DNA of 63,662 nt, the filler included, from Stramenopiles sp. TOSAG23-6 (Eukaryota): the NCBI GenBank assembly GCA_900128565.1. It is 7 parts of 7 records of this genome, joined end to end, with 100 filler letters (N's around TTAATTAATTAA, not from the genome) between each part and the next. Parts side by side here need not be neighbours in the genome. Positions count along the whole stretch, not along the records: positions 24,316 to 36,370 come from LT636222.1; 6 more parts are not named here. One strand, 5' to 3'. Position 1 is the first letter of the stretch; each line of letters starts with the position of its first letter. Below, one piece after another: positions 8,057 through 48,521 of the stretch. The notes under the pieces are model-generated. The model did no database searches. It saw only the letters and a program-made list of their open reading frames with translations, and had not been told where the DNA came from. Both the position numbers and the translations under genes were made by a program.

Positions 8057-10992
8057 TCAAAATAAACCAACAATTTTTCCTGATTCATAATCAAAATCAA
8101 TATCATAAAAACCTGGTCTCGTTGGAAGTCCAGGTATCGTCATGATCTTTCCTAATAAAGGAAATACAAAACCAGCTCCAACATTACACCTTATTTCTTT
8201 CACAGCTACGGTAAATCCTGTGGGAACTCCTTTCTTCTTTGGATGTATTGTAAAAGAAACTTGTGAAAAAAAAATTGTTAGGTACAAATTTTTCATATAA
8301 AAAAAAAAAAAAAAATTCTGAAAAAAAAAACATACATCTGTGCTTAAACTCAAATGTGTTTTTGCTATACATATCGGAAATTTCCCCCACCCTTGCTCTT
8401 CATAATATTTTATCGTTTCAGCAACATTATCAGGTATTTCTACACCATCAGCTCCATAAATTTCTCTCGCAATGACTGAAATTTTTTCTTTAATGGGCAT
8501 ACATTGTGAAAAATATTTTTTGTTTGTTGGAAAAATCGTTAGGTACAAAATTTTTATAAAAAAAAAATCAGATTTCAAAAAATTAAAACGTACATGCACA
8601 AAGGATACAAAAATTTGAATCCTGGACTGTTTTGATTCGTTGATCGAGACATTGCACAAACAGACGCAACGGCAAGGCCTAAGTCAGTTGCACCTGCGCC
8701 CCCTGTATTTTGAAAAAATATTTCAAAAAAAAACTAAAATTTGTTAGGTACAAAATTTTTATAAAAAAAAATTTCGAATTTTTTGTAAAAAAAAAAAATA
8801 AAACACACCTTGTGCCCAATGATTTGAAAGAATTGCATGTCCTGCTCCTGCTTCTAAGGCAGCTTTACACACAATATCAATTTCAGAGTTAGTATCAGTC
8901 GCAAATTTATTTACAGCCACAACAGGTGTTATCCCAAATTTCAAAGCACTTCGAATTTTTAGTGTCAAAAAATAATTAACAAAAAAAAAATTGTTAATGT
9001 ATGAATTTTTTTTTAAAAAATTAGAAAAAAAAAAATTTTAGGTACGAAATTTTCTATGAAAAAAAAATAAATTTAAAATTCATGATGTTATACAACGTAC
9101 ATGATGCTGAAGATTACAAACTCCTGCTCGAAGCAAGTCCAAATTTTCTTCTGTGTATTGCGATGCAAGAGGGGTACCGGGTTTCACAGGTGGGCCACCA
9201 CCATGCATTTTCAATGCTCTCACAGTGGCTACAATGACAGCACAGTTTGGGATTAGTCCGGATTGACGACATTTTATATTGAAAAATTTTTCCATTCCAA
9301 TATCAGCACCAAAGCCACATATTGTGAAAAAATATTCAAAAAAAAAATTGAAATTTTTTAGGTACGAAATTTCGTACGAAAAAAAAAATAAATTTGAAAT
9401 TGAAGAGAACAACGTACGCACTCAGTGACACAAAATCCTTCGTCGCCGACTAATTTCAACGCTACTTGATCTGCAACAATGGAAGAGTTGCCATGAGCAA
9501 TATTTGCAAATGGACCAGCATGAACGAAAACATTTGTTGGACAAAATATTTCAAAAAAAAATTAAATTTTGTTAGGTACAAAATTTCGTATGAAAAAAAA
9601 AACCCAAAAAAAATGATTATGGAAATATACAGGTGTTCCTTCTAACGTTTGCATCAATGTTGGCTTGATCGCTTCTGCCATCAATACTGTTAGAGCTCCA
9701 CCAGTACCTAAATCATCAGCTGTGATAGGTTCACCAGATCTAGACTGGCCAATCACCATTCGACCTAATCGATCTCTCATGTCTTCTACTATATTGTGAA
9801 AAAAAAAAAGTTTTGGAAAAAAAATCGTTAGGTACAAAATTTCGTACGAAAAAAATTAAATTTAAAATGAATTGTGAAAACGTACATGATGTGGTCAATG
9901 CCAATATAGCCATAATTTCGCTAGCTACAGTTATATCGAATCCTGTTTGACGAGGTGTACCTTTTTTTTCCGTCGGAGACTCACCGACAGTTATAGATCG
10001 AAGATGTCGATCACAAGTATCAATGACTCTTTTCCAAGTGACTGAATTCGGGTCAATATGTCTTGTGAGAAAATATATTTTTTTTAATTTGTTAGGTACA
10101 AAATTTCGTATGAATTGTTTTAAATGTTTTTAAAATGTTTATAAAATGTTTTTTACATTTTTTTTACGAAAAAACAAATAATACATTACAATTAAAATTA
10201 ATAATGAAAATATACATTCAAACGAGAAAAAGATGTGATTTCATCAGGTGTTAAATTATCAGGATGAGTTTTTTCTATACCAAGTTTTTTTAATCTTTTC
10301 AGCATTACAGGAGAAAAATGACGAGAACCATCTTTTTTTTTTGGACATAAANGTCGAAACAATGCTGCATCCGATTGAGTATCCTCGTGGTACATTCGAG
10401 TATCGATCGCAGCAGCAAGTAAATTATTGGCAGCTGTAATGGCGTGTATGTCACCAGTCAAATGTAGATTAAATTCCTCCATAGGAATAACCTGCGCATA
10501 GCCACCACCCGCAGCACCGCCCTTGATACCAAATGTTGGTCCTTGTGAGGGCTGTCGAAGACAACAAAATACGCGCTTGCCCAGATGTGCGCCTAATGCT
10601 TGACAAATACCAACAGTAGTAGTGCTTTTACCTTCACCAAGTGGTGTTGGATTGATCCCAGCAACTACAACGTAATTACCTTCAGGAGAATCTTTCAATC
10701 TGTCACGAATATCAAGACTCACTTTTGCTTTATATCGGCCATACTGCTCAATTTCACAGGGAAGAATTCCGGCCTCACGAGCGACTTGATTAATGTGAAG
10801 AGGTGTCACACTTTGGGATACTTCAATATCTGAAGGGACAGGCTCAAGGCAACGAAGTTCTTCCCTCTGGGAGACTTCATTATTCTCTGCTCCAAAACAT
10901 AAAGCGAACTCAATTAACTTTTCCCGATCTTCGTAAACACCAGCTTCTTTTGCTAAACGGGAAATATTTCCAACTTGACTCATCATTTGCAA
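8057..10992 (-). CDS. FTHFS: Formate-tetrahydrofolate ligase, 9 exons (introns 10058-10215, 9789-9885, 9532-9630, 9317-9417, 8957-9100, 8703-8808, 8499-8593, 8243-8335)
   Basis: [69 protein letters not shown]; conserved motifs restored at each junction. Confidence 0.96.
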
Positions 10993-12007: not shown

Positions 12008-12060
12008 GTATGTTTTATTTTTTTTTCAATTTCGAATTTATTTTTCATACGAAATTTTGT

Positions 12061-12160
12061 NNNNNNNNNNNNNNNNNNNNNNNNNNNNNNNNNNNNNNNN
12101 NNNNTTAATTAATTAANNNNNNNNNNNNNNNNNNNNNNNNNNNNNNNNNNNNNNNNNNNN
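12061..12160. other. Artificial contig spacer
   Basis: N-run with central TTAATTAATTAA (stops in all six frames), 100 nt. Confidence 0.98.
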
Positions 12161-12865: not shown

Positions 12866-14576
12866 ATGTTTGGTATGTCAGGTGGCATCGATACACTTCA
12901 AGTGGCTCGAGACCGAGCTCGTATGGAGGAATCGGGAAAGTTATTTGACTGGCAGCGAGAATTGCCTCATCCCCGTGATATCTCAACTGGTGGGACAGGA
13001 CCTTTAGCAGATAGAGTTGCTACTATACATGCAGATCAGAAAGCAATTTTACGTGCTCATATAAATGCTTTAGGTCCAAGTCAACAAGCTGCACTTCAAA
13101 ATATAAAGAATAAATATTCAATACGAAAGAAGTTTAGAAAAATTGTAAAGAAGAAAATCAATATGGAATTACCACCTGAACCCTATGGGGAGTATTGGGG
13201 TGTATCAAAAGGTGCTATTCTCACAGACAATGACCCATATGGATTAACTGGTATTTGGGATAAGCCATCAGGTGATGGTTTAACATCTGTATTAAAAGCA
13301 TTAATGTTAATTATTAAGCGAGAAATGATGCAACAGGGAGTTGAAAAACCATTTCAATTACCACAACAAGCTCTCTCCGCTGCTTGCAAAAATTATTACC
13401 CAGATAGTGTTTGGGACGAAGATAAAGATTATTTTGTCCAATTACGACATAAAGCAGCTAGAGCTGCCTTTCAGAAACAACAGGTAAAATCAGGAAGTCA
13501 TAATAATTTTTGTCATCCAGATAAAATTCTCTATGCATTTGATAGGAAATCAACTACTTCAAATAAATATGAAAAAAAAGCAAAACGTATGAATCGAAAA
13601 AGTTTTCTAGGTGTATTAGAAAAAGAACTCCTCATTGGTACAGCTTTACCATTGATACAAAAAGGAACAAATAAAGCGTTAAACTGGCAGAAATTACAAC
13701 ATAGAGCATGGAAATATCGACGTCAACGCTGTGCACATTTGTTACATACTATAGAAAAAGAACAAAAATTAGAACTGGCACGTCAAAAAACTTTACAATC
13801 TGGACAATTTCGTTCTGCGGATCCTCAAGTCATACTTGATCAACAAGTAAAATATGCCAAAGAACGTGCTGAAGCGGCTGATAAATGTTTACGAATATTA
13901 CAAGATTATGGACTAATTACTGCAACAGAAATGTACGTTTGATATGAATTTCTAATTTATTTATTTTTCATACGAAATTTCGTACCTAACGATATTTTCA
14001 ACTAAACTTTTTTTTTCACAATACATGGCTTCATACTTGCAACATACATTAAAAGGATATAAGATAGAATCTAGTACAATGGATGATGATTCTGCAAATA
14101 TGAGTATGAATCAAGTAAAGAAAGCAAAGAAAAATGCTGATGCTATGGTTCATGCTGAAGTCGCATATCTTCGACAATGTCCTGAAATGAAATATTGGAG
14201 ACCAAGTGAAGCTGCATTAGCCAAGTTTAAATCTCCAAAACCACCTCCATTAACTGCTAAAGAATTAGTGCCTGACTTGAAAAGTTTTGCTGGAATTGTT
14301 TTTGCACAGAAAAATTTAGAATATGCAAAAAATCCTGCACAAATTAAGTTATATAATAGACTTACAAAACGTGGAATATTTCATGAAAATCTTCCACCTT
14401 TGTCTGTTCACTTACGAGATGGTGTACAAAGTGGATATTTAAAAACAGGAAAGACTTATGCTGGTCTATTTGGTAGAGGTTTAGCTGAAATCAGTGGACG
14501 ACGAATTCACAATGCTAGAAGTAAACATATTGGTTTATTTGGAGCTATACCTGAAGATTCATATAAAATTATTTAG
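12866..14576 (+). CDS. Hypothetical protein, 2 exons (intron 13933-14026, GT-AT)
   Basis: Removing the intron joins ORFs 12866 and 14025 in frame (GAA AT|G GCT). Confidence 0.75.
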
Positions 14577-14688: not shown

Positions 14689-17477
14689 TTATCCTTCAGC
14701 ATTAATTCCTTCCCATAATTGAGAATGAAAGAAACCACCATTACCTTTCGTTGTTTTCCGTGCAATCATTGCAGTTCTCTTCAAACTCTGAACTAATTCA
14801 ACATTTGCTTGTAAAAACGAAGGTTCATGGTAATGAATCTTGTGCTTTGCACATAAAGCACGTGTTAATTTTCGTGCTTCACGAAGATTATGTCGAGGTA
14901 AACGTGGCCATAAATGATGTTCAATTTGAAATTGTAAACCTCCATGAAACCAATCCATTGCAGGTGAACACGAAACATTCATTGTTGTTGCAACTTGCAT
15001 TTTAAACCATTCATCACTATCATCATTATATGCCTGACCATGATACGTTTTCATTGTAAAATGGGAAATACATATTTGTACATGTAATATACCAGCTAAT
15101 CCATGGGATATTAAAAGAAATGCAACACGTTGGAGCCATGTATCACCACTACTATATACCAAAGGAAGCATCCAACCATGGAAAAACAATAATGAAAGAA
15201 AAGACCAAAACCTCCATGCGACTTTTTCTTTTGTATCACATAGCAAAATAAATGATTGAATGTATAAATTGAATCGTGCAACTCCCATTATAGGATAGAA
15301 CAAGTAATGTTGATACGATACAAGAAACCGTGCAATAGAATCCATTATCATATGTTTTTGATGATATGTTGACCAAAATCCTTTTGTATCATCAAATATC
15401 TTTTCATCAACTGCAAATACTGGTAAATGTTGAATATCTGGATCATTTTCAACAGAATTACATACAACATGATGTACATTATGTGACCGTTTCCACCAAT
15501 TTAATCCAATTCCACCAGATGTATTTAATAAACACAAACCTGCCCATTGATCACGTTCACGTTCATGTGAAATACTAGAGTGTCCACAATCATGACCAAC
15601 AAAAGCAATTTGTTGCCAAAAACAAGCTAAAAAAAAAGCACCTACCAGTGAGGTATGAAATCCGTCACAAAATAGAGTAAAATATATAACTAAACTAAAT
15701 AACATTATTAACCAAATGGATAATATAATGTAATAACTCGCATTTGTTTCAAATAATCCTCTGCGTAAAAGAATTTGACGAATTTCACGATGTTCCTTTG
15801 CAAATTCAGACTCTTTATAATCAACTATTTCACCAATGTAATAAGAAGGAAGGAGTTTTTCATATACTCTTGCTGGATGTATTGTAAATATATATATATA
15901 TGTATATTTTTGTAAGTTAAAATGTTTTGTGAGGTACGCAATTTCGTACGAAATTGTTTTTTTTTTGAGATTTAAAATTTGAAATGAAGACAACATACAT
16001 GATAATTAGCAAATGCATCAGTTACATCTTTACCACCTAAATTTACCAATGGAAGCCAACCTCCAGGATGATTATCAATATATTTTGTAATATCATACGC
16101 TTTACCTTCAATACATATCCATGTAATTTTGAATAATATTTCAAACATTTGATATTTTTTTGTTAGGTACAATTTTTTTTTTTTTTTTTTTTAAATTTAA
16201 ATTTTTTTTTTGTATAAAAAAAACGGACATAAACTCTCACGAGAATTATGTTTAGCTACTTCAGCCATAGTTATTCCTTTTCCATTTCGACTAGCAATGA
16301 ATGCTTTTGCTGCTTCAACTTTAGCTTTTCTATAAAACACAGATGGCGCTAAAACCGCTTTGCCTTCTTCTTCTCTCCATACCATTTTAGGGTTAGGGTT
16401 AATACCACCATCAACTTTTGAAATTCCATTCCTATTATTTTTATGATTTTTTTCATTTTGAATTTTATTTAATCGAATTTCTTGACGTTTTTGTTCTTCC
16501 ACAGTAGAAAAGACACTACCACTATTCTTATCATGACTCTTTGCAAGTCGTGCACTAACAGTTGCAGTCCGTTGAGTCGTTCTCTTCAAATCTAATTGTG
16601 TAAGGCAAATCTCTCCAATGACACAAACAATTAATCCTCCACATCCACCAACTAATGTAGCAGTTAGCATAGGTAAACGGGCAGCAGTACAAAACGAATG
16701 CGACGAAGAAATCAATAATAACCAAGAAACAGTTTCTACGGCAGATCTAATAGTAAATAATTGCCAATTATCAGCGCAATGCACTAGTCGATTATGAACA
16801 ATGGATCCAATGACACTTGTTGGTGTAGATAATAAGCATAGCTGACTCAAAGTGACTAAACAAACTGCCGCTAAAAATGCTTGTATTACAGGATTAATAC
16901 CGATACGATTTGTCATTGCAAAGAACAAAACACCAACTAGACACCACTGTTCAGGGGCGAATAAACCTTGAAAACGCCACTTTTGAACTAATGACGAACT
17001 ACACAGGAATTTTTGTGCCGAAGTACAAATTGAAGTCAAAATGTCACCTGTGACTAGTAAGGCAATCCCACTAGAAGCACCACCAATGTATGTTAAACAA
17101 AACGAATTATATACACTATGAAGTTTTACAGAGACATATATAAAGGACGACAACTCAACAAACGACCGTAGTGCGTTGTTCACCCAATTGTATTGCATTC
17201 TAGTTACCCTATCCAGAATAATATGAGCTGGATGAGCACAAATACCAAGATACTCAAACATGATACCAATTAACATTAAGAGAAGACAAGTGAAGAGAAC
17301 TGTACCAATTGTTTCAAAATCATTGGGAGAGGTAAGTGTAGTTGGAAGAGCCAAGATGGCACAAACAGGGCCAAAGACCTGCGGACGACTTTGCAGCAAT
17401 TCAGTCAAGTTCGATTTTCCAGTAGCAGAGGCTTCAGCCTTTACCGGAGTAGAATGCGCACTCTTTACTTTTGCCAT
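14689..17477 (-). CDS. Cytochrome b5-fused front-end (delta6/delta8 sphingolipid-type) desaturase with long N-terminal membrane extension (introns 16121-16228, 15877-15998; both GT-AT)
   Basis: HPGG haem motif; HDCGH, HNVHH and QIEHH His boxes; KHNSRESL-W and ANYH|P restored across introns. Confidence 0.92.
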
Positions 17478-17854: not shown

Positions 17855-18766
17855 ATGAAAAAATCATCTAAAATACGAGCTCCACAATTACCTTGGATGC
17901 AACCGAAAGTTTCTAATGACAACTCTGGTCAAGATATTTATTCTAGTCGTTCAAATACACTTTATTCAAACAGATCAAATAAAATAAATCCAAGCAATAA
18001 TTGTAATGATGTTGTGAATGAAAATAAATCATATACAATAGAGTCTTCATTATATAATTCTAGTTCAAAAGATATGCTTGAATCGTCTAATTGTAATTTA
18101 GTTGTACGTGCACCAAAACAACTGTATCCAATAACTTGTACTGAAAAAAATATTTGGTTAAGAGAACAAATGTCATTTTATGAGAAATTATGTGATAAAG
18201 CATGGGAAAGACAACGTCATGAAATTGCAAATATAATTAAACAAAGATTGCAAGCTACAGAAAAAGCAATTTTAGATTCAAATATTGTAACACAAAAGAA
18301 AATGACTGAAATGTGGCAAGTTCACTTGGAGAAACAAAACGTATTAGTACGCGAAGAGTTTAATAGAATACAAAATGAATATATACATTCTGATTCTATT
18401 AAAAATAAGATCAATAATGAAACAGTGAATCCTNAAAAAGTACAAAATTCGTTTCATAATAATTTGGAAAATAAGATCAATAATGAAACAGTGAATCCTC
18501 AAAAAATACAAAATTCGTTTGATACAAAACGTTTGAGTGAAAAAGATAATTATTTTGATGAGACATCTAGACTGAATGAAAATAAAAAATTGAGCAATCA
18601 TTTGATATTGACTCAAGACTTTTCAGTAGAAAAAGGAGATATTTTTTCAAATATGGCAAAATTACAGAAAAATGTAGAAAATTTAGCAAGAGAAACTGCT
18701 GAAATTGTCAAATTGTCCTCTACAAAGAAAAATGCAGAAACATTCAAAGAAAAACGTTATTATTAA
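17855..18766 (+). CDS. Hypothetical coiled-coil, N/S-rich protein
   Basis: 303-aa ORF; no recognisable domain. Confidence 0.55.
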   Translation: MKKSSKIRAPQLPWMQPKVSNDNSGQDIYSSRSNTLYSNRSNKINPSNNCNDVVNENKSYTIESSLYNSSSKDMLESSNCNLVVRAPKQLYPITCTEKNIWLREQMSFYEKLCDKAWERQRHEIANIIKQRLQATEKAILDSNIVTQKKMTEMWQVHLEKQNVLVREEFNRIQNEYIHSDSIKNKINNETVNPXKVQNSFHNNLENKINNETVNPQKIQNSFDTKRLSEKDNYFDETSRLNENKKLSNHLILTQDFSVEKGDIFSNMAKLQKNVENLARETAEIVKLSSTKKNAETFKEKRYY

Positions 18767-19068
18767 TTTTTTTTTAGGTACAAAATTTTGTACGAAAAAA
18801 AAAAATTATACACAATTAGAAAAACAGTACAATAAAGAAATGCATTAATATTTTATATCAATACGAATTTCAAATATTCTATTTTTTGTATTTTTTGTAT
18901 TTTTTGTATTTTGTGTAATATGTTTTTAACAAATCAATTCAAATCAACTCAAAAACTCAAAGAAATTGAAAAAAGATCAAAAATATTCAGAAAAAAAATG
19001 ATTTTTTTTAATAGCTTCAGTAGGTTTTTGTATAACTTTCATTATATTTTTTCAACATTTCAATTTTT

Positions 19069-21062
19069 TTAAATAGCTTCAGTAGGTTTTTGTATAACTT
19101 CCATTAATTTTTCCAACATTTCAACATTAGCCATATTACTTTCTTGTAAATGTTTAAATCTGTCCAATGGTAAAGATTGTAACTTTCTTACTTTTTGGAC
19201 TTCTTGACGTAATAATGATGCATCTGCTTCCAATACAAGAATTCGTTTTTCTGCTTGTGCCAATTTTCTGCGACAGTTTTGTTCTGCGACTTCAAAACGT
19301 TCTGCATTTGTTTGAGCAGTTCTGTGTTTTGTATGTAATTCTGTATTTTCTCGGTCTAAAGTACTACATTGTTCACGATAATCACGTGTTTGTTGCTCTG
19401 CTTCATCCACTCGGCGACGTAATAATGCATTTTCCTCTTGAGCTGTTGCATGTTGAACTTCCATATTCGTTTGAGCATCTCTAGAAACACGAAATGCAGC
19501 AGTTATCTCAGCTAAGGCTACTTTATTCATTGCACTATTATTCTTTACAATTCCATGTTCACGTTGAAATAATTCATGTTTTGTGAAACAATATTTTTTT
19601 TATTTTTTTTTTTTAGTAAAAAAATCTACAATTAGGTATAAAAATTCACACTAAAAAAACATAAATGATAAACACGTACATGTCGTTTTCCTAGATCATC
19701 ATGTTTATCCAAGGTACTTTTTAATTTATCAGTGAGTTCATTATTTTTTTTTTCCAATTCAACATTAGTTTTAACCAATTCTGAACAATCTTCTTGTGCC
19801 TTTGTAGCTAACGCTTCAAACTGCTCCATTTTCTTTACTGCTTGTCTTTTTTCTATCTCTGCTTTATGTAAGGCAGATATAGTATTTGTTAATTTATTGG
19901 ACGTGTCAGTTAAAATCGATTCAGTTGTCAATAATTTATCTTTTATTGTACTGTGTTTTGCATGAACTTCTGAGTGTTTATCACCAATTTCATCAACTTG
20001 TTTCTTTGCAACATTTAAATCTAATTCAAATTGTTTTATCGTTGCATGTGCTTTACGTAACTTTGTGCTGTGATCTGCGTGTGCTTCTTCAAGCCGAGAT
20101 GTGGCACTACTCAATTCACTCTGCACTGCACTCATTTGTGTTTCCAAGGCTTGCGCTCTTTTTCTTGAAGCAATGTTACCATGTGTTTTTTCTTTCAATC
20201 TTTTTTCTAATGATTGTTCACGACGAAGCATATCTTCTTTATGTGCTTCCAAACGAGCTTCCCATAATGATAACTGTTCATTTTGTGCTTGTACTAATAT
20301 AACCTGATCACGGACTTTTTTTTCCATTTTGAGTCGATCATCTCGTTGCTCAAGACGAGCTCTATCATACGCCGCTTGTACATCCGCTAAAGTTTTACCA
20401 AGTGAGACAGATGCACCTGGAGCTTTTTCTCGAGTATCTGATATTGGCACAAGTGTAGAAGGCATTTTTGGAACCTTGAAAGACGCTGATGGAATATTTA
20501 CAGGAGGTAAACTGTTGGAGTGTTGAGATGGTTCTGAGAACGAAGGCATTGTTGGGGGTTCTGTTTCTTCTTCTTCCCACGAAGTTTCAGTTTTATCTAC
20601 ATTTTTTGTTTCCACTTTTTTCTCTTCTTGTACAACTGAAATAGATTCAACGGAATGTACATTCATGCTTATGTCACTTGGAATTGCACCACCAACTTGC
20701 TGTTGTCGAAGAACAGCACACTCCATCTCTAATAAGTATATCTGTTGGCGAAGATTATACGTCATTGCATTAGGACTCTCTGATCCTGGTGCAAGATCAT
20801 CCACAGGACTCACATTTTTTGGTGCAGATGTCTTTTCAAATTTATAACCTTCTAAACCAGAAGCTATATCAAGACCAATACCAGCTTCAGTCATTTCACG
20901 TTTTAACTCTTCTAAAGCATCCGTCCGTGGGGAATCACCTCCTCGACGATTTGAATAACCATTACTCTTTGAAACTTTATTCTTTATCTTTCTATTTGAT
21001 CGTGGAGGCCGATACGATCCACGAGAAGAATTGCTGCGATGTTTTCCATTCAACTGTCGCAT
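19069..21062 (-). CDS. Long coiled-coil protein, 2 exons (intron 19576-19679, GT-AT)
   Basis: Removing the intron joins ORFs 19632..21062 and 19069..19530 in frame; heptad-rich. Confidence 0.78.
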
Positions 21063-22404: not shown

Positions 22405-23432
22405 ATGCCTGCATATAAATCAGAATTTTATTTACTCCTTCGTTACGTCTTTTACACAGTTTATTTTTGGCTTCATCTGTTATGGATTCGTCTTAATTTG
22501 TGGCTTAGCCAGGCGTGGGTTCCAAAGACAACAGATATTCGACACAAAATAGTAATTATTGGTGATGGTTTTGCTCTTGGCGTTGGCGATTCCGTCATTA
22601 TGGGCGATAAAGCTGGTATATCATCAAAATTAGAGACAGTATTGGCGCATGAGAGTTCTGTTAGACAACAGTGGATGGTTCTTAATCGAGGCCACTTTGG
22701 TGCTACTTCTGCCGACTGGTTACCTGGGGAAGACGTTGGCAAACCGCGTAAAGAGTATGCAGCAGGAGTATCAAAGTCACTATTCAAAGATACATTCGAA
22801 TCACGCCGTTTCTCTGATGCTGAAATTGTTATTGTAATGGTAGGTTACCACGATCATGAAATAGAAGCCTTAAAAGATCCAGAAATTACCCGTAAGAACA
22901 TACAAAAAATTGTGTCTAAATTAATTGAATTGAAAAAACAAGTATTTATCATGGGAATACCTGAAGTAAGACGATGTAATAGCTTGGGGAAAACAACAAA
23001 GGGTAATGTTGGTGCTCCGGCATTATTATGGAATCGTGAAAGAAATAGACTAGTGAGTCAATACATTAAAAGATGTACGTTTTCAAATTTGAATGCTTTA
23101 CCAATTTCAAATTTATTTTTTTTTCATACGAAATTTTGTACCTAACAAAAAAGATCAAAAAAACAATATTTTCCTACAATACATGTAAAGCCATGAAACT
23201 TCCACTTGATTTTGTTGGAGTCAGTCGATTCACTTCAAACAAAATCTTTGGATTTGATACAGTTCATTATAATTCTGTAGGATATAAACAAATTACTTCT
23301 ACACTTTTCAATGCTTTAACAAAAAGTATAACAATGGTTGAATTTGCCACGTGGCGAAAGAAAATTACTCCTGAATTTTCAATTTTGGAGGAATTAGAAA
23401 AAACAAATTCAACAAAAGTAAAAAAATATTGA
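22405..23432 (+). CDS. SGNH/GDSL hydrolase-like membrane-anchored protein (intron 23075-23184, GT-AT)
   Basis: IVIIGDGFALG block I, NRGHFG block II, DTVHYN block V. Confidence 0.75.
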
Positions 23433-23600: not shown

Positions 23601-24125
23601 CTATGAAAAACCATGTGACATTAGCCAAAGGGCAACATTTGGCCACATATCTTCTTCACATTCATCTCGATCAAGAGAATGATTATCTTTCGGATACCAT
23701 AATAATCGAGTTATACCTATATTATGAAAAAAAATTCAAAAAAAAATCGTTAGGTACAAACTTTCGTACGAAAAAAAAACTAAATTCGAAATTGAAAAAA
23801 AATAAAACATACTTCCATTGGCACGTAAACAATGATAATATTCTAATCCAGTGGATGGTGGAACTCTGAGATCTTTTGCACCTAAACAAAGTAATACTGG
23901 TGTTTTTACATTTGATACATATTTGATAGGACTTGCATCATACATTTGTTGCAATTCTGAAGATGTTGGTGCATGATACTTTTCAAAATTATATGGTAAT
24001 CCTGATTCAACAAAACACCAATCAGGAATATCTGTCGCACCTGACATATTTGCAATATTACAAACAGGATTACGTAATGCAGCAGCTTTAAATATATTTG
24101 GATATTGACCAATTAAATGAGCACC
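23601..24125 (-). CDS. APEH: Acylaminoacyl peptidase (S9C), C-terminal part (intron 23717-23812, GT-AG; 5'-truncated)
   Basis: HLIGQYP, RNPVCN, TDIPDWC, SPIKYV..VKTPVLLCLGAKDLRVP, YPKDNHSL. Confidence 0.88.
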
Positions 24126-24215: not shown

Positions 24216-24315
24216 NNNNNNNNNNNNNNNNNNNNNNNNNNNNNNNNNNNNNNNNNNNNTTAATTAATTAANNNNNNNNNNNNNNNNNNNNNNNNNNNNN
24301 NNNNNNNNNNNNNNN
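24216..24315. other. Artificial contig spacer
   Basis: N-run with TTAATTAATTAA. Confidence 0.98.
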
Positions 24316-24366
24316 TGAAAATTTTGTACCTAACAAATTTCGAATTTAATTTTTTTTACAATACAT

Positions 24367-24488
24367 GTGACGCATTTGAATTAAATGTAGGCTGTCCACA
24401 GCGTGTTGCTCGAAAGAAAAAAATTGGTGCATATTTAATGCGAGATCCCGAACGTTTGATTTCACTTGTAAGTTTTCAAAATTGAATG

Positions 24489-24527
<39 letters not shown>

Positions 24528-25658
24528 TTTTTTACCTAAAAATTTTTTTTTGTACCTAACAATATTTTTTTAAGATTGTATATTTTTCCATACTACATGT
24601 ACAATCTGTTTCAAGAGCTCTGACTATACCTATATTTGTAAAGATACGAATTCTACCAAATATCCGAGATAGTATTGCATTAGCACAAATGTTGGAACAT
24701 GCAGGTGCTAGTGTGATTACTGTTCATGTATGTTTTATTTTTTTTTTTTTTTACTATGAATTTTTTTTTTTGAAAATATTGTACCTAACAAATTTAAGTT
24801 TTTTTTTTTGAAATATTTTTCCAAAATACATGGTCGGATTTTACGACCTGGAAAGGGAGGTAAAAAAGGTGGTGATATCGCTGCAGATTGGTATGCTATA
24901 AAACGAATTCGTGAATCGGTTGATATACCAGTGATATCTAATGGCAATGTTCGGTCATTGGATGATGCGTTAGCTAGTATTGATTATACAGGATGTCATG
25001 GGTGCATGTCTGCATGTGGTCTCTTGGCCAATCCAGCTATATTTTCAGAAAAAAACACGAATATAACAAATATAACAAATATAAAAAATACAACAAATAT
25101 AAAAAGAATACATTCAAAATTGGAATATACAATACCAACTGAGATATCTGGAGTTCCCATTTTGCCATTAAAAGAACGTTTATCATTATGTATAAGATGT
25201 ATGTTTTATTTTTTTTTATTTGAAGTTTTTTTTCTTACGAAATTTTGTACCTAACAATTTTTTTTTTTGAAATATTTTTTCAAAATACATACTTAATCCT
25301 ATGTAAAAAATATCCAGATGATGCTGATAAACGTTGTATTAGTAAACATTTATTTGCGATAATGAAGAATAGACAATGTACCACAAATAAATCTTGTGAA
25401 GTTGATGAAGATGATGATTGTACGTCGACAAGAAATAATTTTATATATATTTTTGATACAATTCATTCTAGTATACATCAATTCCAAAACAAAAAGAATC
25501 CAAAAGAGGACAAAAAAGGACAAAACAAAAACGAAATTCCAGAAGCAAATCAGTGGGAATCATCATTAGGTAGTAGCAATAGTTGTATGTCGATTGGTTT
25601 TCAATCAGATTTGATACATTTACAGAAAATATTTGAGAATTTTTTGAGTGAACTGTGA
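24367..25658 (+). CDS. tRNA-dihydrouridine synthase (DUS1-like), 5'-truncated (introns 24468-24598, 24728-24831, 25199-25290; all GT-AT)
   Basis: LNVGCPQ, GAYLM, VKIR, TVH|GR, ADW, IPVISNGNV motifs. Confidence 0.9.
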
Positions 25659-30300: not shown

Positions 30301-33069
30301 TCTTCACTATTTTCAGAGCAATTTTTTTTAGGTGCAATAATATGCGAAAAAGCAAGCGATGCACCATAATTGTGCCCCATCTTGCCACCTAGACCCAATT
30401 TGGTTCCTGGGGCAACATTTACACCTATTGGTTTCAATGATGATAAATATACGGGAGGTATCGCACCGGAGCCTTCAACTTTTAATATTTTAACACTACG
30501 ACTACTGCCATAAAAACATACGGCGGGAAATACTTCTCCAAAATCAGACATGTTTGTAAAAGCAATACCTTGATCTTCATCATTAACAAAGTACCTCATT
30601 GTCCCAGCCTCCATATCTAACTGTATCTTGATGATATCATCTTTGTAAATTCGTTTACATTTACGACCGTGGGCAACTCCTCTACAATATAATTGTCCAT
30701 TATATGCGCGATACATCCAAAGATCAGGAGATCTCTCGTAACCATGATTAGTGACAGGTTTTGTTGCTGCTCCAAAGCATGTACATTGAGATGTTGTGTC
30801 CTCTGTTAATTGCATCTCCCACGTTGCACTTCCACTACTGAACCCTATATTGAATAAAACGGAACAATAACTGCCAGTAGTGCAGCGGACAACTGTAGAA
30901 TTTTCAGATAAAATTAAACCTGGATGACTCAAAGACTTTGAATCAAATTTAGCAGAGCTTATGAGACCAGAAGAAGAATGATTTGCACCCCGTTTGCGTT
31001 GTGCTGCTTCAAAGATTTGAAGTTGACGAAATTGCTCCTCGGCGTACACTCCAAGCTCACCAATAAACTTACGCGCACTGCTATCTTTAAATACACCATT
31101 AGTTTTTTCGTAGTATTTCGCAGCCCAACCTACATGTTCCTTTAATTTTGATGATTGGCCACTTTTATCTTCTTTTATTATTGAATTACTATTTGAGTCA
31201 GCTTCAACAAGTGTAATCAAAAGTCTCAGTATAGTGACAAATGATCCAGATGCAATAGCTAAATTTGAAAGACATGTTAGCGCTGCATCTTGTATATCCG
31301 AATTTAAATGTGTCGAAAATGCTGACATCCATCGGCGCAGAGACTTCAGAGTCGTGATACTACCATGATTATTTTGTTGCATAGTTGATAGTTCAGTAGT
31401 GAAATCTGTTGCACCACTCATTGTTTCTGTATCATATTTTTCAAATTCATCCGCAGAATTTTCACCTGGTACTTTTTGCAACGAGTGATCATGTTGGCTC
31501 AAAATATGACGCAGGATATCAGACTTACTTGGAGGTAACGGTCGTCTTCTCAGCTCTATATATTTAATTGCATAATATCCATCTATATTGTCAGGGGCGA
31601 ATCCTTTAAAATAAATTCGAAAATGTGTGACTGTTTGTGGTTCTCTTAGATGTGTAGGTACTATTTGATATTCGGTGCTTTCTTTAACATTCCGTCCAGC
31701 ATCAGAAATATTTACATTTTCATTTTTTGCTTTGCTATGAAACTTTTTAAGTGTACTTCGGCTATTTTTTTCTAATCGAGGCATATACAAACGAAAGGGC
31801 TCTTCTCGTTTTGTTTTTAATTCCTGTAGAGTGATACAACGTATTGGGGTCCACACCTTTCTACCTGTTGAAACTTCACATATAATTTGTTGGGGTAACC
31901 ATTTAGTCTCCCAAGTAAAAGAAACTGAAGTTAATACGCATGGATTTCCTAAAAATGCACCCCAGAAACAACGACCTGATGGTTTGGATGAAGACCTCCA
32001 CATACCAGAACTAGCAACAGCATTTCCAGATGCGTTTGATGGACTATGTGTGTGAGATGCAAACGTACATTGTTGCAAAATAGGAATAACTTCGTCTACT
32101 GGTTCAATTGGAGGGACCCAACCACTAAATAAACCTAGAGGGCTGATTTTTTCAAGGACGCTTCCTGCAGAATCCAAGGTTGGCTTGAGCGCGTTGCTAT
32201 CATCACATTTTTCTATACAAATATTGTCTACTAAAGTACCTAAGAATTCAAGACCGATTTCCCGTACTTGAACGCTACGAGACGCCTGTTGAAGTCTTCT
32301 AGTTACGTATAGTGTTGCCTCTTCTCGATTAGAATTCATTTTTATACACAAATCCTGTAGATTTGAAGCTAACGCAGCATGACCATAATTAACAGCAACG
32401 TTAATAGGTGTGTTTTGAGATTTATCACGTAACATTACGTTTGCGCCGTGGAGAACTAGTAACTCTGATTCAGCTGAGCGTCCATTTGCACAAGCAACAT
32501 GCAATGCTGTTGAGCCGTTCGGCATTGAGGAGCGCATATGTGTTGTGAAAAATATTTTACATATAAATTCGTTAGGTACCGAAACTCGCACGGAAAAAAA
32601 ATAAATTGGAAATTCAATTTTGAAAACGTACATCTATATCCGCTCCAGCGTTCAACAAAAGCACTACTATGGCACAACGAGGTCCAGAACCAGGACCACA
32701 TGCTGCATGTAGGCATGTCCAGCCTTGAGCTGGTTCACTATCAATATTATTAGGTATTTGCCACTCTGCTTGGGAAATAGGCGAAGTAGGATGCGGCACA
32801 CTTTGAGACTTTATATCGAGGTCATTAGTCACTGAGGTGATTGTATCCGATGTTTCTGTTGTTTGAGAAATTAATTCATCTGCTACATTTGAGCCTGGAG
32901 GCTCAGATGGTGTTCGAACTTGCATCCGAAGTCGACATTCTACAGACTGTTGTAGAAACCTTTTCACACTCTCTAAATCTCCTCGCCGGCATGCTTCAAA
33001 CAAATCAAGCCTATCTTGCCACTTCATACGCTGCTCCTCTGAAAGATTTGTAGATAATATAGGAGCCAT
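27381..33069 (-). CDS. Large ankyrin-repeat + SPRY + NPCBM-like domain protein (intron 32538-32631, GT-AT)
   Basis: GWTCLHAAC, AGADID|MR, GSTALHVAC ankyrin repeats; SPRY (WMYRAYNGQLY, LDMEAGTMRYFVN..QGIAF, FPAVCFY); FEVWGDGELLW NPCBM-like segment. Confidence 0.8.
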
Positions 33070-35639: not shown

Positions 35640-36319
35640 ATGGGAATAAAATCGCTTCTTCAAGTGCTTGACTCTGCTTCAGAACGTCGGCATGTAAGTG
35701 AATATGTTAAAACTAAAAGTAGACCAACCCTTGCGGTCGTTGATACTATGTGCTGGTTACATCGTGCATGTTATAGTTGTGCCACAGAACTTGCTCTAGG
35801 TAAACCAACTGACCGATTTGTTCATTATTTTCTTCGTAGGGTGAAATTGTTGCGTTTAGCTGGTGTTGAGTGTGTTATGATTTGTGATGGTGCTAGTCTC
35901 CCTTCAAAGAGGGATACACAAATTGAGCGTCGAAAACTTAAGAGTGAACAACGTTTGAAGGGAATCGCCCTTTTAGAGCAATCCAAGCAAACCAACGATA
36001 ACACAAAAAAGAAAGCTCTTTTGAAATCAGCTTACGAGGCCTTTCAAAAGTCTATTACAATTACTCCGAGAATCCTTAAGACTCTCTTTGATACACTTTC
36101 TGCTCACGGAGTTCGTCATATATGTACGTTTTCATCATGAATTTATTAATTTATTATTTTTTTGGTACGAAATTTTGTACCTAACAAAAAAATCAAATGT
36201 CTGAAATATTTTTTCACATCATATTTGCACCATATGAAGCAGATCCACAGTTGGCGTACCACACTCTCGATATTGTCTCACAACAATGGAAAGCTGATTT
36301 CATTATTACTGAAGACTCA
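35640..36319 (+). CDS. EXO1: Exonuclease 1, N-terminal part (intron 36124-36224, GT-AT; truncated in next intron from 36320)
   Basis: MGIKSLL, DTMCWLHRACYSCA, DGASLPSK, APYEADPQLAY, ITEDS. Confidence 0.92.
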
Positions 36320-36370: not shown

Positions 36371-36470
36371 NNNNNNNNNNNNNNNNNNNNNNNNNNNNNN
36401 NNNNNNNNNNNNNNTTAATTAATTAANNNNNNNNNNNNNNNNNNNNNNNNNNNNNNNNNNNNNNNNNNNN
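36371..36470. other. Artificial contig spacer
   Basis: N-run with TTAATTAATTAA. Confidence 0.98.
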
Positions 36471-36856: not shown

Positions 36857-39444
36857 TTTTCTTGACTTGTAGATCGAACTAATGACATACCTCTATTTAC
36901 TTTACCATTTTGAGATTCCTTTTCTTTGATGCCACTAATTGGCTGTACTGCTTTTTCTTGAGATTGCTCTGTACGACCAAATGTGAAATCAGATACAGAC
37001 TTATTAAGAGCATGTTTTTCTGGTTTTTCTGGCTTAGAAGAAATCGATTCAGCAAAACTATTCTTTTTGACACTATCTAATTTTGGAGCATCACTAAATT
37101 TAAAATTAGATATGATTGAGGATTGATCTTCCAACAAAGTCGCATTTGTTACATGGATCACTGGAGCATTTGAAAATGTAAATGAATCCTCTGAATTTGA
37201 TGAATTTGATGTTGACATATTTAGAAAAGATGATGATTTGACATGTGAATTCGAATGTATCGTCGTTTTTTCATGTTTTGTATTTTTTTCAAAACTGAAT
37301 GAAAATTCAGGTTTTTTCTTTTCGTCGACAGTTTGAGTAAAAGTAAATGAAGAATTTTTTCTTGTTGCGGCGGCGGAGGGTACAGATGATTGATCATTTC
37401 TATTATTATTATCATTTTGAATTTCATATTTATCAAATACCTCTTTTGTATTATCCAATACCGGAGGTTTTGAAATCGAATCACTTGAACGTTGTTTCAT
37501 ATTAGGCAATGAAAAAGTTAATTTTTTATTCGTTTTCACACCATCTACAACATTTTCAACTACCTCTGGAGAATAAAATAAAGGTTTTGAAACAGTATTA
37601 AAATTCGAATGTACATTTAAATGTACATTTATACCATTTTTCGTACCTAACGAATTTCGAATTTGCTGAGACTTTGCCTGTTCCGTTTTTCTTCGAATAG
37701 GAGCATGTATTTTGGAAAAATATTTCGAAAAAAAAAAACTAAGATTTGTTAGGTACAAAATTTTCAAAAAAAAAAAAATTAAATTCGAAATTAAAAAAAA
37801 ATCGTTAGGTACAAAATGTACTATGAAAAATAAATTCAAAATTGAACAAAAAATAAAACATACAGGTGTTGCAGTATTAGCGTGAATATTTTTAATTTCC
37901 AATGAAACATTTGGTAATTTTTCCACTTCTTTTACATCATTTTTGGAATTATTTCGTGTTTTGCCTTGTCTGACTTTAATAACAGAACCTGTAACACCTT
38001 TAATGCGTTTTTCATTAGAGGGCGGAACAGGAGCTCTTTTGCTACGTGTCACTTCAAGTGGTGTTGACATTTGCTGTAAAGCGGAAAGAATTGAGTCTCT
38101 GATCTTCATTGCTTCATTGGCTTTTTTGGCTTTTGTACTACCACCAACCCTACCAATAGAATTCGATTTCAAATTATTCGTTGCTTCTGTATTGATATCA
38201 CTCAAATTTCGTATACCAGGAGTTGTTCCAGTTAGTAAAGAAGAAGGTCGAGATCGAGATTTATTTTTTAATGAAGAGTAGCGATATTTCGTATGAGATT
38301 TTCTACTTGAACTAAGTAAAGCTTGTTCGGACCAAAAATTTTCATGACCAAATCCTGTTTTTTTTACTGAACTTAATCTACTCTTTGAAATAGTATTTTT
38401 ATGCAGTCTTTGCAATTTAAACGCACGGGGACGAATTTCAGGCGAATTTGCAAAATCAAAATCACCATATTTTGTTGCTGTTTTTTTTGTAAATCTTTCA
38501 CGTTTCCCTCCTACTGTTCTATCCTTAGGGTTGGGGTTATTATTGATATTTTTACGATTTGTTGATACATCTACATTTTCATCATTACAATTTGAATTAT
38601 TATTTAAATTATTATTTAAATTATTATTTGAATTTGAGCCAAACACAAACATCTCATTTGAATGTACATTTGAATGTACATTTGAATGTACATTTGAATG
38701 TACATTTAGATTATTTTGATTATTTCGTGCATGAGATGAAACTGTACCAAACATACGAGGTAAAGTATTTTCAGCATATTGATGACGTCTTTCCCCAGTC
38801 ATCAAACCAGGATAATATCCCGGTACCATAGCAGCAGCTGGAGTGTTAAATCTATTTGTTGAAGTGTTTGAAACGACCATTGGAGTCATCGAAATATCCA
38901 TACCTATAACTCCTCCATTTGTATCGGATACAGCACCATATCTATTAGGGTTAGTCGGTTCAATATACCCCCGATGATACCCTATCGTAGGGTTAGGGTT
39001 CATACTAACACCAAACGGTGTTGCATAGCGATACGATATTCTATGTTGTTGTTGTTGTTGTTGTTGTTGGCATTGGTGGTGGAGGTGTGGCGCAGGAGCA
39101 GGTGTCGCTAAACACATTGGTGTCAATAAACGATGTCCAGGCGAAGTTTGTGTATTAACTTGTTGTCGGATCCTCGAGTCATCTCTATGAGTAAATCTAC
39201 GTATTACATCAACTGGGGTAAGATGTTGCTGAGGATTCCCATTTGATATTATTTGATTATTCGGAGCAACGCGCGTAAAAGATGGACGTACTAAAGGAGT
39301 TTTTTTTGTATGTAATCCTACGGGTTTCGTACCTAACGAATTTCCAATTTGCTGAGTGTCATCATTTTCATTTATATGGATATTTTGTTGAGGGTCAGGG
39401 TTTAAGGTCTGAATATTCTGTTGATGCTCTTGAGATTGTGATAT

Positions 39445-41626: not shown

Positions 41627-44278
41627 ATGGGAGAACCAAAATCTTTTCCAGATGAACCATTAAGTGTACAAACTTTGGCCCTTCATATAGTAAAAGAGCA
41701 TTTTGGTCCATTAGTGGAAACTGTTTGCAAGGGGTTGGCACAGTGCGGACTCATCTCCTTGACTGCATTGTTGGGAAAGTTGCGTCGGTGGACACCGTCT
41801 TGGGATCGAAAAAATGTTGTTCATATACTAAGTTTATTGTTACAGCATAATTTATTGGATGTTCAACAGCGAGCGCCGTATAAAGATGCTATGGGTGTAA
41901 TACAACACCCTCCAGTATTGTACGCATTCCGTTCTCGTTCTGCTGTGCATCGTTTGCGGTATGCAAAACTTCTCTACCACATAAAGAAACGGTTTGGTAC
42001 TGATGGGGAAATGCTATTATATAGACTTCTCTTTAATGGAAGAGCACAGGAGTCTCGGTTATGTGAAGAAGCATTTGAGTATCTTGATCGAGTAAAAAAC
42101 CTCAAAGTCGATTCTACTTCTGAGAAAGATGCAAATCTGAATTCTTCAACAGTAAAGAAAGAAATGAATGAAGATAACATCTCACAAGAAAGAGAAGACA
42201 GACTTTCCTCGTTACAGGATGTATTTCTTGAGATGGTATCAGAAGGGTATATCCAGCGTGTTGAACGTTTAGATCTCTTGAAAACAAAAATTTCTAAAGG
42301 AAAGAAAAAGAAAACAAATTCCAAATTGAAAAAAAAAGTGAAAAACTCAAAAAACTCAAAAACTAAAAAGAACTCAAAAACTAAAAAACGGTCAAAACGC
42401 AAACGTGCTCAAGGTCTTGGTGAAACCAGCTCGGATGAAGAGTCTTCTCGTAAAGCACCTAAAAAACGATCTCGAATGCAATTACGTGGTGTAAAAAAGG
42501 AAGATAATGATGACATGTATGTTTTAGTTTTTTTTCAATTTTTTGTCTACATTTTTTTTTTTTTTTATAGTAAATTTTGTACCTAACATTTTTTTTTTGG
42601 TACATTTTTAAATATTTTTCCAAAATACATGCTACAATCAAGTAGTGAAGTTGACCTAAGTAATATGATGGGGCTTTCTTCTACATCATCATCAAGTGGT
42701 CTATCAAGTGGTGAGTATATTTCTAAAACATCAACAAACACTACATTGAATGATTCACGGAGCAATGCAGATTCTTTTCAAGTCTGTCTTCCCCGTTTTA
42801 CTCGTGAATTTAGTATGTTTACTCCCAACTATAAACCCTAACCCTAATTCCATATTGATAAAAAAAAAAAAAAAAAAAAAATTTCATACGAAATTTTGTA
42901 CCTAACAAATTTTTACTAAAAAAAAATTGAAATATTTTTCCAAAAAAAACATTTTTTTTTTCATACGAAATTTTGTACCTAACAAATTTTTACTAAAATT
43001 TTTTTTTTTGAAATATTTTTCTACAATAAATGAGAAATTGCATTAAAAAGTTGCACAAAAGAATCTGAAGGTAAACTCTCTTCAAAAGTAGTTGGTTATA
43101 TATTAGCTATGCGTAATGCTCAAATTGCAGAATCTGATCGAAACTTTTGTGGTTCCCGCGGCTTTCAATTTGATGGTCGTAGTGTATTTGATTACATCAA
43201 GAATGAGAACCCTAACCCTAGTTGTACGAAAGGAAACCCTAACCCTAATTCTTTGGAATTCTTTGGTGAAGATTTTACATATCGAAAGTGTCTTCGTATC
43301 CTTGATTCTTTATCAAAAGGCCCTTATTCAATACTAGAGAAGGCATGTAGTTTTAGTGAAGATTCGTATGTTTTCATTTTTATACGAAATTCTGTACCTA
43401 ATGTTTTCATTTTTTTTTTTTAAATTTTTTTTAAAATTTGTTGTATACGAAATTCTGTACCTAACATTTTGTTTTTTTGTTTAAAATTTTCACAATTCAG
43501 GAAAGATAATGATCAATATTGTGGCGGAAATTTCTCATTTGAGTACAGACCTGCTTTAGATGCACTTATCAGAGATACAATAGAAGATATTATACTACAA
43601 AAATATGTATGTTTTATTTTTTTTAATTTTTTGTCTAAATTTATTTTTTCGTACGAAATTTTGTACCTAACAAATTTTCAAATTTTTTTTTGAAATATTT
43701 TTCTACAATATATGGTGTGCAGAGCAAACGTGTTTTCCGTTTACTTCTTGAATCTCATTATTTAGAAGTGAGAGAAATTAGTATGAAATCATTAATTGGT
43801 GTAAAAGAGACGCGTGCGATATTATTCCAATTATTCTCAGCTGGATTTTTGAAATTACAAGAAGTTCCTAAAAAATCTGATCATGAATGTTTTATTTTTT
43901 TTTTTTTTCCGGTAAAAAAAAAATCGAATTTTTTTTTTTTGAAAATTTTGTACCTAACAATTTTTTTTTTTATACAAAATTTTGAAATATTTTTCCAAAA
44001 TACATAGCCCACAATCAACTTTATATGTCTGGTCTATAGACCAAGCTCAGTTGATGATTCGTCTATCTGCTGATATTCATAAATCTATATTTAATTTACG
44101 AGTACGTAGACAACAGGAATGGGATTCAAATGAAGCACTAATTGAACGACACCAGCGACGATTAATATCAACTGCGAGAGATAAACAAAAATTTCTTCAT
44201 TTGGGTGGTATCCTTCGTCAATTAGATTCAAGTATACTACAATTGGATGATACTTTGATGCTTCTTGTTGATTTTTAA
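41627..44278 (+). CDS. POLR3C: RNA polymerase III subunit RPC3/RPC82, 6 exons (introns 42517-42630, 42813-43031, 43366-43500, 43607-43713, 43885-44005)
   Basis: EHFGPLVETV, LLLQHNL, RLRYAK, LLFNGR, KY|G..RVFRLL, LQEVPKKSDH|SPQSTLYVW, QLDDTLMLL. Confidence 0.9.
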
Positions 44279-44409
44279 AATGTATTTTAAAATGTATTTT
44301 AAAATGTATTTCAAAATGTATTTTTGTTTTTCTTAGAAATTAAATGTAAGATCTTTATTTTTATTGTCTTTTTTTGTTGTACAAGTATGTTATTGAAACA
44401 CTTTATATG

Positions 44410-48449: not shown

Positions 48450-48521
48450 ATGGATTTTGGAAAAATATTTCAAAAAAAAAAACTTAAATTTGTTAGGTAC
48501 AAAATTGCGTACGAAAAAAAA

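Follow-up and report, generated by a model that had tools for sequence, protein, structure and literature searches.

What marks the 3′ end of an intron that does not end in AG? The question is raised by positions 24809-24831 of a stretch of 63,662 nucleotides from Stramenopiles sp. TOSAG23-6 (the window, by which we mean the whole stretch of DNA that was analysed), where the original prediction had placed a conserved 3′ box. These positions are the last 23 bases of an intron at 24728-24831 in a gene for dihydrouridine synthase (Dus). They read T, GAAATATTTTT, CC, AAAATACAT, and the exon follows with GGTCGG. The exon upstream of the intron ends ...ITVH, aligned to ...IAVH of human DUS2 chains with the VH conserved, the exon downstream starts GR... 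and carries positions 167-251 of the Dus profile, and the Pfam Dus profile positions continue across the junction. The flagged stretch probably belongs, as the 3′ end module, to one copy in a proliferated, introner-like family of short introns of spliceosomal type.

An intron family with mostly AT ends

The final set comprised 32 introns in at least 15 genes; two were found later, and some counts cover 30. The 5′ ends were placed at the GT of GTAYGT, and the 3′ ends by eye at the end of the conserved box. Family introns are mostly 92-121 bases long (roughly 100) and share one layout: from 5′ to 3′, the 5′ splice site, a conserved core ending in TACCTAAC (presumably the branch site), a variable T-rich spacer, a pyrimidine run, and a terminal A-rich box of 9 bases that comes as the AAAATACAT or the ACAATACAT type. 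The 5′ site is yeast-like, GTATGT or GTACGT, and 31 of the 32 introns start with GT; among 30 introns, G is present at +1 in all 30, T at +2 in 29, G at +5 in 27 and T at +6 in 30. The branch octamer TACCTAAC was seen in almost all introns and was exact in 25 of 31. With at most one mismatch, GTACCTAAC gave 60 matches against 7.5 expected (maximum 14 in 100 shuffles), GAAATATTTTT gave 46 against 14.0 (maximum 26 in shuffles), and the box pattern TTYYAMAATAYAK gave 42 against 11.8 (maximum 20 in shuffles).

When 30 introns were anchored at their 3′ ends, A was found at −9 in 29, at −7 in 29, at −4 in 28 and at −2 in 29, T at −1 in 25, and T at each of −15 to −12 in 27-29. The T run followed by an A-rich box, which the original prediction had held to be common to the acceptors, is borne out by these counts, and the same listing contains the varied ends that it had named (CAT, TAT, AAT, CAG, TAG, TGT and AAA). 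Positional conservation of the 3′ ends was found in 30 introns of the window. The AG-ending introns at 8703, 9789, 23717 and 43500 proved to be real and to carry the shared box. The suggestion that the box stands in place of a polypyrimidine tract did not hold: a pyrimidine tract lies directly upstream of the 9-base box.

The 32 introns end in AT (25), AG (five), AA (one) or GT (one), so that 27 end in AT, AA or GT. The last three bases are CAT or TAT in 22 of 30 introns. Upstream exons end in AT in 24 of 32 cases, with CAT or TAT at the exon end in 12 of 30 and NAT in 22 of 30. Provided that the 5′ cut is at GT, the 3′ ends are mostly AT, not AG.

Frame and homology tests of the junctions

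The longest open reading frames (ORFs) flanking each intron join in frame in 30 of the 32 cases, where chance would give one third (p about 1e-12); one more fits by a tie, and the copy ending at 48938 fails. For a test by homology, all donor-acceptor combinations within a set range were scored for eight introns of the formate-tetrahydrofolate ligase (FTHFS) gene and one of the desaturase gene, against seven homologues. The curated junction lay on the best-scoring diagonal in nine of nine introns and was top or tied top in eight; at 8499-8593 a slide of 2 bases along the best diagonal outscored it. Other removed lengths scored 45-76 points below the best. At 9532-9630, 9317-9417, 8957-9100 and 8499-8593 the GT-AG, GC-AG and AT-AC readings all fell below the best homology score. 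The spliced desaturase aligned without gaps over both junctions to a protein of 72% identity, including a conserved split Trp codon. Reading frame and homology together leave no freedom in the removed lengths, and these four introns have no possible canonical pair of ends.

It is scarcely credible that the interrupted genes are pseudogenes or products of faulty assembly, with ends that mean nothing. The scaffold was put together from contigs joined by linkers, and it contains a perfect inverted duplication of 5,780 bases. However, the exons are open and conserved, removal of the elements restores the frame in 30 of 32 cases and gives gap-free homology, and a random fault would not fit one repeated sequence in 15 genes.

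A shift of the register by two bases would yield AT...AC introns, making use of the known A/C pairing of intron ends. In 17 of the 32 introns an exon end AT and an intron end ACAT leave the mRNA identical in this register, which also scores equally at 10215, 8335 and 16228. For the other 15 the reading is impossible, and at 9630, 9417, 9100 and 8593 it offers no canonical match to the best homology. The ATCC of minor introns is absent from the 5′ site, and the branch motif is 31-56 bases from the end, where minor introns have it at 10-15. The GT-first register puts G at +1 and T at +2 in 31 of 32 introns and sets GTAYGT where U1 and U6 usually pair, whereas the shifted register produces mixed starts. 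We consider AT...AC ends quite improbable, and infer that the GT-first register is the true one because it gives a uniform canonical 5′ site in these 31.

Probable shared descent of the introns

The introns can be aligned end to end, with one long sequence recurring from the 5′ site to the 3′ end, and a profile search gave 50 family matches in the window. The original prediction had not recognised them as copies of a single element. Between pairs of introns the mean identity reaches 0.94 in the branch octamer and 0.86 in the 5′ site; over the 20 bases upstream of the branch it is 0.62-0.66, and over the last 22 bases 0.67-0.76. Flanking exons give 0.25-0.31, and base composition by itself would yield 0.37. 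There are two subfamilies. AT at +10/+11 goes with the CAAAAT-type box and CA with the CACA-type box (counts 9, 2, 0 and 6; Fisher p=0.002, for the 17 of 30 introns classed at both ends, with 13 left out). Five of the six linkers that mark scaffold gaps adjoin a copy of the family, as expected if near-identical repeats broke the assembly. Given the identity along the whole intron, the linked subfamilies, the tandem modules and the gaps at copies, shared descent first of all would be the simplest account of box conservation. The pattern resembles that of introner-like families, and we hold the explanation as a whole to be likely.

The same conservation might arise with no mobile family, if selection by a reduced or altered spliceosome held all introns to one consensus and the box were a pure splice signal; the introns would then be comparable to the uniform ones of mikrocytids, or their signals to the strict ones of yeasts with few introns. 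The best-kept positions are indeed signal-like (the 5′ site, the branch octamer and the A's at −9, −7, −4 and −2), all copies found lie in genes in sense orientation, and the hallmarks of transposons are weak. In mikrocytids, according to an excerpt of PMC10245619, one sequence is common to all introns of a genome. Such selection would not explain, however, why conservation reaches about 20 bases before the branch and the GAAATA element, which are no known signals, or why variants at the 5′ and 3′ ends, with about 90 bases between them, go together as subfamilies. Nor does it predict tandem modules inside introns or assembly breaks within copies, the latter being expected of near-identical repeats. 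The high intron density (eight introns in one FTHFS gene) is also unlike that of intron-poor genomes with strict signals. We regard selection acting without a mobile family as unlikely.

An AT direct repeat, a border repeat of at most 2 bases, bounds 22 of 30 copies. The AT before the 5′ cut could be either a 2-base target-site duplication or a preference in insertion or in splice-site choice. The ends are inverted over 4-6 bases (GTAT/ATAC plus a few A-T pairs), and the consensus ATGTAT and ATACAT form a short inverted repeat of −7.7 kcal/mol at best. Features of this kind would fit non-spliceosomal removal, either at the DNA level as for the internal eliminated sequences of ciliates, which have a short direct repeat at their borders, or at the RNA level through end pairing as for the nonconventional introns of euglenids; non-canonical introns of hemistasiid diplonemids and of Amoebophrya pair at their ends, as described in excerpts of PMC12621601 and PMC7789003. 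Against this, the near-invariant GTAYGT, TACCTAAC and pyrimidine tract are spliceosomal signals, the GTACGT copies have a box without compensating change, and the long ORFs of the window are open under the standard code. The end pairing is weak, and own ends pair no better than foreign ones; as a site-defining structure it was not supported. Non-spliceosomal removal is in our view very improbable.

Placement of the 3′ cut

In 28 of the 32 introns, exactly 9 bases separate the last run of at least three pyrimidines from the cut. This spacing is found in both subfamilies, for AT, AG and GT ends alike. In 27 of 32 introns an AT or AG that comes earlier within the 9 bases is passed over. An unused AG also stands downstream of the branch motif, before the intron ends, in 12 of 31 introns; several of these AGs belong to a T run plus TAG located 9-13 bases downstream of the branch motif.

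Other rules were tried and rejected. The first AG is the right site in only 3-4 of 30 introns and the first YAG in 4 of 30; the first CAT or CAG is right in 17-18 of 30, and a fixed offset after a CAMAAB motif in 14 of 30. A ruler from the branch motif was dismissed because the distance from the branch A to the intron end is 31-56 bases, with one case at 81. Because the spacing is 9 bases in most introns, earlier AT and AG are skipped and the first-AG rule fails, position predicts the cut far better than dinucleotide does. The cut site thus appears to behave as a position within a unit of pyrimidine run plus box, and not as a dinucleotide.

Two introns, 37705-37863 (−) and 42813-43031 (+), contain two branch-motif modules each and are natural tests of site choice. 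That at 42813-43031 includes a complete internal unit of pyrimidine run plus box, ending in ACAT, which is unused as judged by the frame.

Several points weigh against a proliferated family that is cut at a set position. The sample is small, being one window of about 64 kb, and part of it is a perfect inverted duplication. Most boundaries were set by eye from the box and checked for frame afterwards, and the ends at 8957, 9532 and 2331 were set with frame or homology known. With AT at the end of 24 of 32 upstream exons, many junctions can slide by 1-3 bases and leave the mRNA unchanged, and both splicing and the exact register of the cut are deduced from sequence. Four introns have 7, 7, 10 and 10 bases in place of 9, so the ruler is not rigid; three of these exceptions (9532, 8957 and 16121) are fixed by homology, and at 8957, with 10 bases, substitutions suffice to align the intron with the consensus. 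Exon ends and intron ends covary only slightly (25 against 23.2 expected and 24 against 21.0; p=0.03 and 0.02), and among the eight introns whose exon end is not AT, one matches its own intron end. The end duplex amounts to −3.7 kcal/mol for own ends, −3.9 for mismatched copies and −2.6 for shuffled ends. With the family profile, the window showed neither a full antisense copy nor a clearly intergenic one, and a few short partial matches stayed unassigned. A 19-base pattern had only three unrelated chance matches in JGI metagenome contigs, and a scan of GTDB genome contigs gave nine single chance matches, in bacteria.

The ruler put forward in the original prediction is thus supported in part: 28 of 32 introns keep a constant 9 bases to the pyrimidine run, whereas the four exceptions, the unfixed branch distance and the varying T-run lengths tell against it, and shared descent is a confounder. 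Insertions and deletions are few overall in the last 22 bases, and for this reason the constant spacing could be mere inheritance.

If the introns are a proliferated spliceosomal family, as we favour, a U2-type spliceosome would remove them, pairing with GTAYGT and TACCTAAC. It would no longer require G at the last intron position, and would still require A at −2. The second-step cut would be placed by a factor or an RNA contact that reads the pyrimidine run and the A-rich box as a unit, position within the unit outweighing the last dinucleotide. The box would be conserved first by inheritance from a founder element and secondarily by selection, since shifting the cut would disrupt the frame. 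Candidates for the changed component are the U2AF subunits or second-step factors such as Prp18. More speculatively, the branch motif, which has one C more than the yeast TACTAAC, may suggest that U2 small nuclear RNA (snRNA) has changed with it. These steps would amount to a lineage with textbook recognition of the 5′ site and branch, in which the AG acceptor has been replaced by a composite signal cut at a fixed position, with AT as the default, the signal having been brought in and spread by one invasive family that now makes up nearly all introns. We put forward this wider proposal tentatively, as possible and rather short of probable.

Comparison with known introns

Few signals of eukaryotic genes are as constant as the AG that closes their introns, and nature offers only a handful of exceptions (Fritillaria, Amoebophrya, euglenozoans and minor introns). 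Of the features of canonical U2-type introns, the 5′ GT consensus, the branch motif and the pyrimidine tract are present in the family, and the terminal AG is found in 5 of 32. In introns of the U12 type, the distance to the branch site determines where the 3′ site lies, and several terminal dinucleotides are tolerated, including GT...AT; the type is defined by the 5′ site RTATCCTT and by a branch motif that precedes the 3′ end by 10-15 bases. What it shares with the family is a positional choice of the 3′ site with relaxed dinucleotides. The family introns, though, have the 5′ site GTAYGT without ATCC, a branch motif 31-56 bases from the end, and a pyrimidine tract.

Introns of budding yeast have GTATGT, TACTAAC and the first YAG after the branch site. 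The family shares with them the strict GTATGT, a TACTAAC-like motif and a distance from branch to end within the yeast range. It differs in the extra C of the branch motif, in the CAT end in place of YAG, and in the skipping of upstream YAG. Loss of yeast Prp18 activates non-YAG sites, as an excerpt of PMC10711555 describes.

The closest known case is Fritillaria. In F. borealis and F. pellucida, AT is the commonest 3′ end of introns (34-44%), a YAY triplet both precedes the 5′ site and closes the intron, and U2AF subunits are implicated, all as given in excerpts of PMC13326754. The introns are held to derive from small transposons and to be removed by a U2-type spliceosome, with a uridine-rich tract kept (excerpts of PMC13326754 and PMC11282704). 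Common to both are AT as the commonest end (25 of 32 here) and a U/T-rich tract, and perhaps YAY-type triplets (here exon ...CAT/NAT and intron ...CAT/TAT). The 5′ ends of Fritillaria introns are mostly non-GT (AG/AC, AG/AT) and intron ends there vary widely, whereas the family has GT in 31 of 32 and a strict GTAYGT. The strict TACCTAAC, the single repeated sequence and the fixed 9-base box are further differences. The window itself is unlike tunicate DNA: among its products are an algal- or protist-type desaturase and a BspA-type LRR protein.

Introners are transposon-derived families of introns in Micromonas, Aureococcus, dinoflagellates, fungi and others (excerpts of PMC9860276 and PMC12130899). 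As characterised there, they are near-identical short introns at unrelated sites in unrelated genes, gene-enriched, with splice signals of their own and short border repeats; the family is similar in all of these but the last, where the likeness is marginal. The surveys, in the same excerpts, require GT, GC, GA or AT at the 5′ end and AG or AC at the 3′ end (PMC9860276, PMC12130899). Published introners, so far as these sources go, end in AG (or AC), unfamiliar ends having been dropped unless RNA-supported, whereas the ends here are AT. Relative to introners, the target duplication of at most 2 bases and the inverted ends of 4-6 bases are both marginal.

Amoebophrya resembles the present case in being a protist with mostly non-GT-AG introns, some of them repeated, and with border repeats of 3-5 bases, according to excerpts of PMC7789003. 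The same excerpts describe introns without consensus ends, hairpins from inverted repeats of 8-20 bases, a U1 that was not found, and a GC content of about 50% or more. The family differs in its strict canonical 5′ site and branch motif and in its weak end pairing. Extensive pairing of the ends, as in euglenid, hemistasiid or Amoebophrya introns, was not seen in the family introns.

The literature searched for GT-AT introns and non-AG 3′ sites yielded no genome dominated by GT...AT introns with strict yeast-like signals, although a report elsewhere is possible. A literature search with the letters of the branch motif returned primers only, and one on Reticulomyxa and MAST-4 returned nothing on such introns. 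The finding would be a variant of kinds already known (introner-like families on the one hand, non-AG splicing on the other), with a weight that depends on RNA confirmation. As only the acceptor differs, the 5′ site and branch being canonical, dozens of near-identical, naturally varying copies would make measurement of the second-step site directly testable. If true, the finding would also bring a non-AG family into what is known of introns gained through proliferating elements. Gene finders built on GT-AG would mis-annotate nearly every multi-exon gene of this genome.

Features of the window

The features are collected in Table 1.

Table 1. Introns of the family, genes and linkers in the window; types give the first and last two bases of the intron
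Feature	Position	Strand	Remarks
Dus intron with flagged box	24728-24831	+	GT...AT, 104 bases, phase 0; frame-consistent
5′ splice site GTATGT of this intron	24728-24733	+	exon ...CAT before it
Presumed branch-site motif GTACCTAAC	24781-24789	+	43 bases upstream of 3′ end
GAAATA, then pyrimidine run TTTTTCC	24809-24822	+	first part of flagged stretch
A-rich terminal box AAAATACAT	24823-24831	+	9 bases; cleavage inferred after last T
Dus intron, 3′ half	24316-24366	+	starts at scaffold gap; ends ...ACAT
Dus intron	24468-24598	+	GTAAGT...AT; holds long A run
Dus intron	25199-25290	+	GT...AT
Profilin intron, diverged copy	2244-2331	+	GT...AG; 7-base box
Family intron	6684-6768	−	GT...AT (TAT)
FTHFS intron	8243-8335	−	GT...AT
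FTHFS intron	8499-8593	−	GT...AT (GTAT); best homology score out of reach of canonical readings
FTHFS intron	8703-8808	−	GT...AG; box as in AT-ending copies
FTHFS intron	8957-9100	−	GT...AA; 10-base box
FTHFS intron	9317-9417	−	GT...GT
FTHFS intron	9532-9630	−	GT...AT (AAT); 7-base box
FTHFS intron	9789-9885	−	GT...AG; unambiguous canonical ends, box as in AT-ending copies
FTHFS intron	10058-10215	−	GT...AT
Family intron, 5′ half	12008-12060	+	cut by scaffold gap
Family intron	13933-14026	+	GT...AT
Desaturase intron 2	15877-15998	−	GT...AT
Desaturase intron 1	16121-16228	−	GT...AT; splits conserved Trp codon; 10-base box
Family intron	19576-19679	−	GT...AT
Family intron	23075-23184	+	GT...AT
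Peptidase S9 intron	23717-23812	−	GT...AG; box as in AT-ending copies
Ankyrin/SPRY giant gene intron	32538-32631	−	GT...AT
XPG-N intron	36124-36224	+	GT...AT (TAT); frame fits only through tie
Intron with two branch modules (tandem or nested copy)	37705-37863	−	GT...AT
RPC82 intron	42517-42630	+	GT...AT
RPC82 intron, two branch-plus-box modules	42813-43031	+	GT...AT (AAT)
RPC82 intron	43366-43500	+	GT...AG; box as in AT-ending copies
RPC82 intron	43607-43713	+	GT...AT (TAT)
RPC82 intron	43885-44005	+	GA...AT; starts GAATGT
Family intron	46844-46948	−	GT...AT
Family intron	47522-47627	−	GT...AT
Family intron	47780-47885	−	GT...AT
Family intron, 3′ half	48450-48521	−	beside scaffold gap; ends ...CCAT
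Family intron, 5′ part	48622-48723	−	GCACGT start; cut by scaffold gap
Family copy	48832-48938	−	GT...AT; only one of 32 with non-fitting flanking frames (short ORFs)
Family intron	61408-61515	+	GT...AT
Formate-tetrahydrofolate ligase (FTHFS) gene	about 8.0-11.0 kb	−	
Cytochrome-b5 front-end desaturase gene	14.7-16.3 kb		
Dihydrouridine synthase (Dus) gene	24.3-25.7 kb		
RNA polymerase III subunit RPC82 gene	41.5-44.3 kb		
Six identical 100-base linkers	12061-12160, 24216-24315, 36371-36470, 48522-48621, 60653-60752, 62158-62257		

The window is AT-rich (about 24-41% G+C per 2 kb) and was read as eukaryotic nuclear DNA. Beyond the genes with their own rows it encodes profilin, an LSM14 protein, an XPG-N protein, a peptidase S9, the BspA-type LRR protein and others. 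Relatives of the FTHFS, at 64-72% identity, come from animals and Paulinella, and the nearest relative of the desaturase is a EukProt protein, 72% identical; a homology search with an RPC82 exon found no relative. As sources of the window, Amoebophrya, mikrocytids, Lemnamoeba, diplonemids and Fritillaria were each rejected because of GC content or intron features. Each linker consists of 44 N, a 12-base spacer with stops in all frames, and 44 N. Because five of the six adjoin a family copy and the sixth lies within homopolymer runs, gene order across the linkers may be arbitrary.

Positions 48518-54297 and 54977-60756 form an inverted repeat of 5,780 bases, 100% identical, with a spacer of 679 bases. 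It extends into the gap linkers at both outer ends and doubles several genes, one tRNA-Lys and several family introns; it looks like a chimera of assembly or amplification, not biology. The copy at 48832-48938 is doubled in this way at about 60336-60442 (+). An Rfam search of the window found the two copies of tRNA-Lys (CTT), at 50866-50938 (+) and 58336-58408 (−), and no snRNA genes; the second copy is due to the inverted duplication only.

At 43885 (+) and 48723 (−), GAATGT and GCACGT replace GTAYGT and are possible GA and GC donor variants. Diverged or partial copies with borders that could not be fixed, at 18765-18810, 48009-48097, 54298-54413, 54615-54861 and 49338-49450, all (−), were left uncounted; they lie in regions that are poorly conserved or possibly untranslated.

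In GTACGT copies, a look-alike of their own 3′ box (a T run plus a CACAAT/CAAAAT type) follows just after the 5′ site, for example at 9847-9885 (−), 36124-36160 (+) and 32595-32631 (−), so that similar sequence in the same orientation is present near both ends of the element. Most copies of TACCTAAC are immediately preceded by a near-palindrome (GTAC, A/T core, GTAC), such as those at 9347-9377 and 36157-36194, which the family profile matches on both strands. Just 3′ of the RPC82 gene, a 12-base tandem array at 44273-44321, near-identical on both strands, resembles the 3′ box. An A run of more than 30 bases lies at 24489-24521, inside the first complete Dus intron, and long runs of A or of T are present in other introns too. 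Short telomere-like CCCTAA repeats were seen in intron-like sequence at 42830-42855 (+) and 49400-49420 (−), the latter with a mirror copy at about 59855-59875.

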